A stretch of DNA of 64,000 bases, from assembly GCA_050289505.1 (NCBI GenBank), contig JBNKFW010000017.1, positions 13,783-77,782 on the forward strand. The letters run 5' to 3'. Origin of the DNA: Opitutaceae bacterium. Its GTDB lineage: Bacteria > Verrucomicrobiota > Verrucomicrobiia > Opitutales > Opitutaceae. Shown here piece by piece: positions 1 through 1,276 of this stretch (its first letter is position 1; every line of letters begins with the position of its first letter). Made by a program: the position numbers and the translations under genes. Below the pieces are notes generated by a model that worked only from the letters and a program-made list of their open reading frames with translations, ran no database searches and was not told the DNA's origin.

Positions 1-938
1 CGCTTTCGGAACCGCCTGAGGATTCCGAGATCTGCAAGGCGATCATGAACGGCACTTGCATGGACGTGCTGGAGATCGACGGCGCCTCCAACAATGGTGT
101 CGAGCAAGTTCGCGCCCTGCGCGAGGACGCGCAATACGCCCCGAGCCAAGGCAAGTACAAGGTATACATCATCGACGAGGTGCACATGCTCTCGACCGGC
201 GCTTTTAATGCCTTGCTCAAGATTCTCGAAGAACCGCCCGAGCACGTGAAGTTCGTCTTTGCGACGACTGAAGCGCACAAGGTTCTGCCGACAATCGTCT
301 CCCGTTGCCAACGTTTTGACCTGAAGCCGATTCCCGAGGACTTGATCCGCGAGCGTCTGGACTTGATTTGCAAGACCGAGGGAATCGAGGCGGACGAAGA
401 CGCTCTCAAAGCCGTTGCCCGTTTGGCGGATGGCGGGATGCGCGATTCGCAGTCGATCCTCGACCAGATGATCGCATTTTGCGGTTCCAAGATTACGGAG
501 CCCGACGTGCTGCAAGTTTATGGTCTGGTGAGCGGCGAGCATATCGACGAGTTGGCCAAGTCGATCGCGACCGGCGATCATCCGCGGCTTTTGGAATTGA
601 GCGATCAGTTCGATGCCTCGGGACAGGATTTCTATCGCGCCTTGGTTGATCTGCAGGCCCGTGTGCGGCAAGCGCTTCTAGAAGCGGTTCGCGGCGGCGG
701 CAAGACCAGCAGTCTCGGCGAGGAGTTGAGCACGGAGTCTTTGACGCGCTTGCTCGATGGGCTTCGCCAGAGCGAGTCCGGTTTGAAGTTCGGACTGAGC
801 GAAAAGGTTAATTTCGAGGTGGCGCTGCTAAAGGCTTCCGAGGAGTGCCGCGCTCGTGCCATCGACGGCTTGATTCGCGAGCTTTCGAGCATCGCCGAAG
901 GTTTGCCCGAGAGTTCCGACGAAAAAAAAAACGACTGA
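1..938 (+). CDS. dnaX: DNA polymerase III subunit gamma/tau, 5'-truncated by window edge; 0-frame product ends just after the A10 run
   Basis: Motifs [51 protein letters not shown] and GGMRDSQS. The frame is open from base 3, upstream of the ATG at 45. Confidence 0.97.
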
Positions 939-1276
939 CGGTACCGGAGCGTAAGCCCTACGTCAGGTCCCAAATCGCTCCCGCTCCCGAGCGAGTGACG
1001 CCTATTGGGGCGCCGGAGGCGAGTCCCTTCGAAAGCAAGGAAACGGAAAGCGAAGAAGGCTACATCGATGCTCCGAGCGATTTCGACCTAGCGGAAGAAT
1101 TGGGCAGCGCCATGCCGGTATTGGATGAAGATATCATTCCCGACGACGGCACCGAATTGCCCACGCTTGAAATGGTCGAAAAGCGCATTCCCGAAAAGAC
1201 CCGCGTTTTAATGGAAGAACTCTTTCGGGCGAAGCTGAACAAGGTCCAGCGGGTGAACCCCAAGAAGATCAAGTAG
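929..1276 (+). CDS. Probable C-terminal extension of DnaX (tau-like tail) in the -1 frame, reached via the A10 run
   Basis: ORF 845-1276 is -1 relative to dnaX and overlaps the A-run at 922-931. It has no convincing independent start and encodes an acidic linker plus a helical basic C-terminus. Confidence 0.65.

Follow-up and report, generated by a model that had tools for sequence, protein, structure and literature searches.

A conserved A10 run at the gamma/tau junction of dnaX in Pelagicoccus and other Opitutales: a putative recoding site, probably served by RNA polymerase slippage

Tau is the subunit that couples the clamp loader to the replicative polymerase. In Escherichia coli the gamma subunit is made from the tau gene by −1 ribosomal frameshifting. 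The shift in E. coli makes the short product, occurs at a slippery A-rich site at the end of domain III whose heptamer ends in G (A_AAA_AAG), and relies on an upstream Shine–Dalgarno (SD)-like element and a downstream stem-loop that are both conserved and required. A second system is that of Thermus thermophilus, where slippage on an aligned run of nine A's (A9) in dnaX is reported as experimentally shown, according to the accounts given in two later papers (Larsen et al., 2000, PNAS 97:1683, via PMC1088944 and PMC5009743). In Thermus, tau is templated in the 0 frame and gamma arises from slipped transcripts.

A two-ORF, ‘reversed’ form of dnaX with a poly-A recoding site was published in 2013 by Antonov, Coakley, Atkins, Baranov and Borodovsky (Antonov et al., 2013, NAR 41:6514; PMC3711429). 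The cluster comprises 17 genes from 12 genera; A10 is present in nine, RefSeq annotates none of the 17, and Figure S3 of the paper features Chlorobium, Flavobacterium, Cytophaga, Capnocytophaga, Prosthecochloris, Pelodictyon and Coraliomargarita akajimensis (PMC3711429). The authors took the occurrence of both shift directions among orthologues as the criterion for transcriptional realignment, and the dnaX cluster appears not to be among the candidates that they put to experiment (PMC3711429). A subsequent review restates the reversed arrangement and adds that the two products can swap roles through a change of one nucleotide (Atkins et al., 2016; PMC5009743). Coraliomargarita and Pelagicoccus, the genus considered here, have a common NCBI order, Puniceicoccales.

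The DNA analysed (the window) is a stretch of 64,000 nt that opens inside dnaX; positions below are those of the window and lie on the forward (+) strand unless stated otherwise. The gene starts 208 nt 5′ of the window (G000:C17:13575), and its 0-frame ORF, listed at 1–938, encodes a gamma-like product of 381 aa that spans domains I–III and ends in SSDEKKND. Its identity as a dnaX orthologue is confirmed by Pfam matches to clamp-loader ATPase domains (DNA_pol3_delta2, 3e-28; DNAX_ATPase_lid, 2e-14; DNA_pol3_gamma3, 8e-5) and by 55–67% identity to the dnaX genes of the order. At the gamma/tau junction lies an A10 run (922–931), the putative recoding (slippage) site, across which the 0 frame reads GAA AAA AAA AAC GAC TGA; the TGA (936–938), two codons past the run, ends the gamma-like product. 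The +1 frame meets a TAA at 952–954, read directly from the sequence, and the −1 frame is open over 932–1276, where 114 codons and a TAG (1274–1276) encode a tau-specific C-terminal extension ending in NPKKIK. Colinear decoding gives the 381-aa gamma-like subunit, and the only sequence coding for a tau C-terminus adjoins the run in the −1 frame; the fused tau has a predicted length of 494 aa. A first-pass annotation, made from the letters of the window, had described dnaX as split at A10, with a long form that needs a shift to −1, equivalent to one extra A, and this holds: the frames are as described, the layout is conserved and the −1 ORF is selected. Downstream, a convergent 255-aa ORF occupies 1343–2110 on the reverse (−) strand with its 3′ end 67 nt past the tau stop, so that the usual same-strand ybaB and recR partners do not follow dnaX here.

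Compared with the described systems, the locus has in common with E. coli the gene itself, the two clamp-loader subunits it would supply and the position of an A-rich slippery site at the end of domain III, but a shift here would yield the long product and not the short one. It resembles Thermus at the site, where an A run occupies the same place and stops follow close behind in both non-tau frames, and also in the provision of both subunits from one gene via mRNAs of varying A number, which was demonstrated by experiment in Thermus and which we infer for Pelagicoccus. The two differ in the templated product, which is gamma here, while a slip is required for tau. With the two-ORF genes of Antonov et al. 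the locus has in common an A10 at the gamma/tau boundary (their runs have 7–10 A's), a 0-frame stop directly past the run, a tau part in the −1 frame, a longer subunit that needs recoding, and conservation of both site and direction among relatives. It departs from that set in that Pelagicoccus and Opitutaceae are absent from the 17 genes and 12 genera, while the layout in question is fixed throughout the family. The published cluster consists of −1 cases only, whereas the order considered here also has +1 and 0-frame tails on the same run.

The −1 ORF evolves as a protein-coding sequence. Among 11 Pelagicoccus sequences its median pairwise dN/dS is 0.105, and third codon positions are variable at 111 of 114 sites, against 55 first and 45 second positions. 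The pattern extends up to the run, with 6/8/20 variable sites at the three −1-frame positions of the first 21 codons past it. The first two residues beyond the run, Arg-Leu, are invariant in 21 sequences, and the Arg codon alternates between CGA, CGG and CGC, changes which are synonymous in the −1 frame and nonsynonymous in the 0 frame. Judged by these substitution patterns, purifying selection acts on the −1 ORF from codon 1 onwards, and the restriction of the Arg codon to synonymous changes, together with the early −1 constraint, places the beginning of −1 translation inside the run and not at a downstream start.

This bears on whether the downstream ORF could be translated separately, by internal initiation or by stop-restart at CTGA, into a small protein that is never fused to the rest of DnaX. 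The geometry would permit it, as the CTG at 935–937 overlaps the TGA at 936–938 and the −1 frame has GTG, TTG and ATG codons beyond this point. Against it, the Arg codon lies 5′ of that CTG and is held as Arg, which puts the start of −1 translation upstream of the CTG; the CTG itself is replaced by CTA in several genera, codons 1–21 are already constrained in the −1 frame, and single-ORF relatives are colinear across the junction. An upstream start is excluded by a stop that closes the −1 frame directly 5′ of the run in 5 of 11 congeners. Where the first-pass annotation saw no good start in the −1 frame, a GTG at 845 is in fact listed by ORF calling; in those five congeners the stop shuts this frame. 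We regard separate translation as very unlikely.

The tau identity of the extension was examined in a protein search with residues 300–494 of the conceptual fusion as query. The Pelagicoccus database entries matched were only 381–382 aa long and named ‘DNA polymerase III subunit gamma/tau’, in keeping with the prediction that standard annotation would miss the long protein. A few single-ORF relatives of 479–513 aa covered 97–100% of the query region; these relatives, among them P0011, P0040, P0041, P0059 and P0072, are colinear across the junction, where they read EKKK, and carry the same C-terminal motif. The reversed polarity proposed at the outset, in which unshifted decoding gives gamma and recoding gives tau, is upheld by the 381-aa 0-frame product and by the colinearity of the fusion with single-ORF DnaX. 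As the −1 ORF is both selected and colinear with the C-terminus of single-ORF DnaX, tau requires recoding here, and since the genome holds one copy of dnaX and one of the tail, there is no other source of tau. Programmed recoding of one kind or the other, by slippage or by the ribosome, is very probably at work.

Within the extension, a C-terminal tail motif (1166–1273) is conserved throughout the order, irrespective of the frame that encodes it. From its position and colinearity in DnaX only, we infer that the motif may be the polymerase-binding end of tau. The C-terminal piece matched no Pfam family at E ≤ 1, and a profile search of the PDB returned nothing below E = 0.4. An AlphaFold2 model of the piece predicts helices at residues 83–89 and 92–106, with pLDDT of about 82 there, and a disordered linker elsewhere (mean pLDDT 68 and pTM 0.24 overall). 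In one genome of the order (G053:C23:38842-41858), three successive same-strand matches to the tail-motif profile were found: one closes a 502-aa single-ORF dnaX, and two fall in small open frames downstream of it (139 and 102 aa), a pattern reminiscent of a duplication of the tau tail.

Conservation of the site was first surveyed by a six-frame search of 40 relatives with the −1 piece as query. A match was found in 20, namely 10 further Pelagicoccus species, 9 other Opitutaceae genera and one genome of another family, and in all 20 of these relatives with a detectable tail the junction carries A10 (A9 in one) with the tail in the −1 frame. The 0-frame stop falls 1–3 codons past the run in all 20, while the flanking nucleotides have diverged. 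Run length and layout are the same in 11 of 11 Pelagicoccus genomes. A scan of named genomes, which also assigns the analysed DNA to Pelagicoccus, gave A10 or A9 in 20 of 20 and the split −1 layout in 19 of 20; independently sequenced isolates that carry the site include P. mobilis KCTC 13126, SDUM812002, SDUM812005 and strain DG1235, and MAGs of Oleiharenicola and Lacunisphaera have A9 with the tail in −1. A search with the tail-motif profile found the tail in a short open frame apart from the N-terminal part in every Opitutaceae genome sampled (16/16); at phylum level the profile matched within the order only, and is uninformative on the other classes of Verrucomicrobiota. Taking all split-layout relatives together, the 0-frame stop lies 1–5 codons past the run (1–2 in nearly all), and the +1 frame is shut within 1–13 codons in all −1-layout genomes surveyed.

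The run in itself is not unusual for the genome. Composition predicts 2.4 A/T runs of 10 in the 5.27-Mb assembly, where two are present and none is longer, so that an A10 by itself is not statistically unusual and the evidence for function lies in conservation and not in the run as such. The second of the two (G000:C21:69424-69433) is outside the window, intergenic and near a contig end, just 5′ of an ORF that begins like an ECF sigma factor.

Homopolymers are error-prone, and the split could in principle reflect an assembly error in the run or a recent inactivating frameshift mutation in what would then be a pseudogene. A possible instance of such an error exists among the relatives, in a MAG labelled Verrucomicrobiota bacterium erpe_2018 (L071, JAUPWC010000434.1) where A10 produces a single ORF of 549 codons, against A9 in its closest relatives (L072–L075 and L078–L079, of the Oleiharenicola/Lacunisphaera group); its layout is either a genuine change of one A or a homopolymer assembly error. 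For Pelagicoccus an artefact or pseudogene is highly improbable, as the same run length and layout were obtained in all 11 genomes by different projects and technologies, the 0-frame stop is conserved directly past the run, a dN/dS of the value found is incompatible with decay, and the gene is the sole dnaX in the genome. The recurrence of the layout in independent genomes makes a recurrent identical error not credible.

A second survey compared the junction in another 40 genomes of the order. A run of A8–A11 at the junction, with one of three frame layouts, was present in 36 of them, and the remaining four had no run of seven or more A's. Sixteen genomes have the tail in the −1 frame (A10, with A9 in one) and six have it in the +1 frame (A10, again with A9 in one); in the other 14 the run is read in frame within a single ORF, which is the Thermus arrangement (A9 in seven, A10 in four, A8 in two and A11 in one). 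In the split layouts both non-tail frames close within a few codons. The +1-layout genomes are L043, L047 and L049 (G168, G186, G150), L058 and L060 (G138, G175) and L061 (G026); three of the six come from the same genus (one as a single-contig assembly), and the LFRAxF motif is kept in the +1-frame tails of all six. Some of the +1 and 0-frame layouts come from draft or MAG assemblies and could be homopolymer length errors. The comparison across Opitutales had been proposed to look for a conserved A run, hairpin and downstream −1 ORF; the run was borne out, whereas the frame of the downstream ORF varies as described and the hairpin is not conserved.

As the same run serves a tail in −1, in +1 or in the 0 frame, the conserved element is the run and not a particular shift. 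The layouts of related genomes differ by single A's or by bases beside the run. On balance we favour a reading of the order as a whole in which the run is conserved while the frame of the tau tail is free, RNA polymerase slippage into three frames is ancestral and efficient, and evolution has repeatedly changed the templated product and, with it, the gamma:tau ratio.

Run lengths that are one apart between related species, and that flip the layout, would also be expected from phase variation at the DNA level, with slipped-strand mispairing switching cells between gamma-only and tau-encoding genotypes. The differences seen, however, lie between species and genera and not within populations, the same A10 is present in every Pelagicoccus assembly, and dnaX is a single-copy replication gene; we consider phase variation extremely improbable.

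How the run is recoded is a choice between RNA polymerase and the ribosome. On the ribosomal alternative, A10 would be transcribed faithfully, and tau would come mainly from −1 frameshifting at A_AAA_AAA (or A_AAA_AAC) within the run, as in E. coli with the products exchanged. In its favour, perfect X_XXY_YYZ heptamers lie in the right phase within the run, the split layout in Opitutaceae is always −1 (in the 20 relatives and the named genomes), and Atkins et al., 2016 name some reversed dnaX genes as candidate sites (PMC5009743). The heptamer here is, however, A_AAA_AAA or A_AAA_AAC and not the A_AAA_AAG of the E. coli-type element, and the stimulators that accompany the latter were not found in conserved form. 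An Rfam scan of 800–1100 at E ≤ 10 returned no dnaX frameshift element, only a chance-level match to mir-5350 (E = 3). An upstream SD-like stimulator was considered and rejected, as the GGAG-like sequence needs a Pro codon that ends in G, and that base varies between G, C, A and T.

A downstream stem-loop had also been put forward, at 935–966, with arms CTGACG (935–940) and CGTCAG (961–966) and an inner GC-GTAA-GC. The arms are present and pair in the minimum free energy (MFE) fold, and to this extent the observation was correct. Its energy of −13.7 kcal/mol is, however, indistinguishable from the mean of dinucleotide shuffles (−13.56; z = −0.05). In 7 of 11 congeners the outer pair cannot form, two congeners lose three to four pairs, no compensatory changes or covariation were found among the 11, and no common fold was found in other genera, which have unrelated sequence there. 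The pairs that stay intact fall in codons constrained by their amino acids. The hairpin was thus rejected as a functional stimulator on its z score, the lack of compensation and the lack of a shared fold.

We regard RNA polymerase slippage as the most likely source of tau, and a probable one, given the comparative sequence data. Slippage is favoured because both shift directions occur among the orthologues, which is the criterion of Antonov et al., 2013, and a +1 tail on the same run in the same order could not be served by a −1 slip of the ribosome; because the run is kept at 9–10 A's where the seven of a ribosomal heptamer would do; and because no conserved hairpin, conserved SD-like element or Rfam dnaX element is present. 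A caveat is that ribosomes, too, can slip by −1 perfectly on an A run, whatever its phase, and the comparative data leave some probability for ribosomal frameshifting. Ribosomal frameshifting as the main route is, in our judgement, unlikely, at something like a one-in-five prospect.

In the slippage mechanism that we propose, RNA polymerase would slip on the A10/T10 hybrid and release mRNAs with varying numbers of A's. Transcripts with A11 (and also with A8 or A14) would join both parts in frame and give the 494-aa tau by ordinary translation, while those with A10, A9, A12 and similar numbers would give products of gamma length, as both other frames stop within 2–7 codons. One A fewer or two A's more in the mRNA would thus lead to a gamma-length product as well, through the +1-frame TAA. 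A single gene could in this way supply both clamp-loader subunits, in a ratio set by the slippage spectrum, with −1 ribosomal frameshifting on A_AAA_AAA possibly contributing.

The site is real, conserved and unannotated, and its kind has been published before, with an example in the same order. Known recoding mechanisms are unchanged by it. The modestly new point is that −1, +1 and 0-frame layouts coexist across the order on the same run. For annotation the consequence is direct: automated catalogues, which list the 381-aa form only, make Pelagicoccus and Opitutaceae look tau-less, and recognition of the site corrects this. The site is also carried by cultured isolates, such as the P. mobilis strain named above, in which ‘reversed’ dnaX recoding could be measured. 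Elsewhere in the order, a genome whose family (f18) has a dnaX without an A run at the junction shows two equal-scoring dnaX matches on a single contig, separated by 1.8 kb (G141:C3:1506189-1509086); the pair stems either from tandem duplication or from an artefact of assembly.
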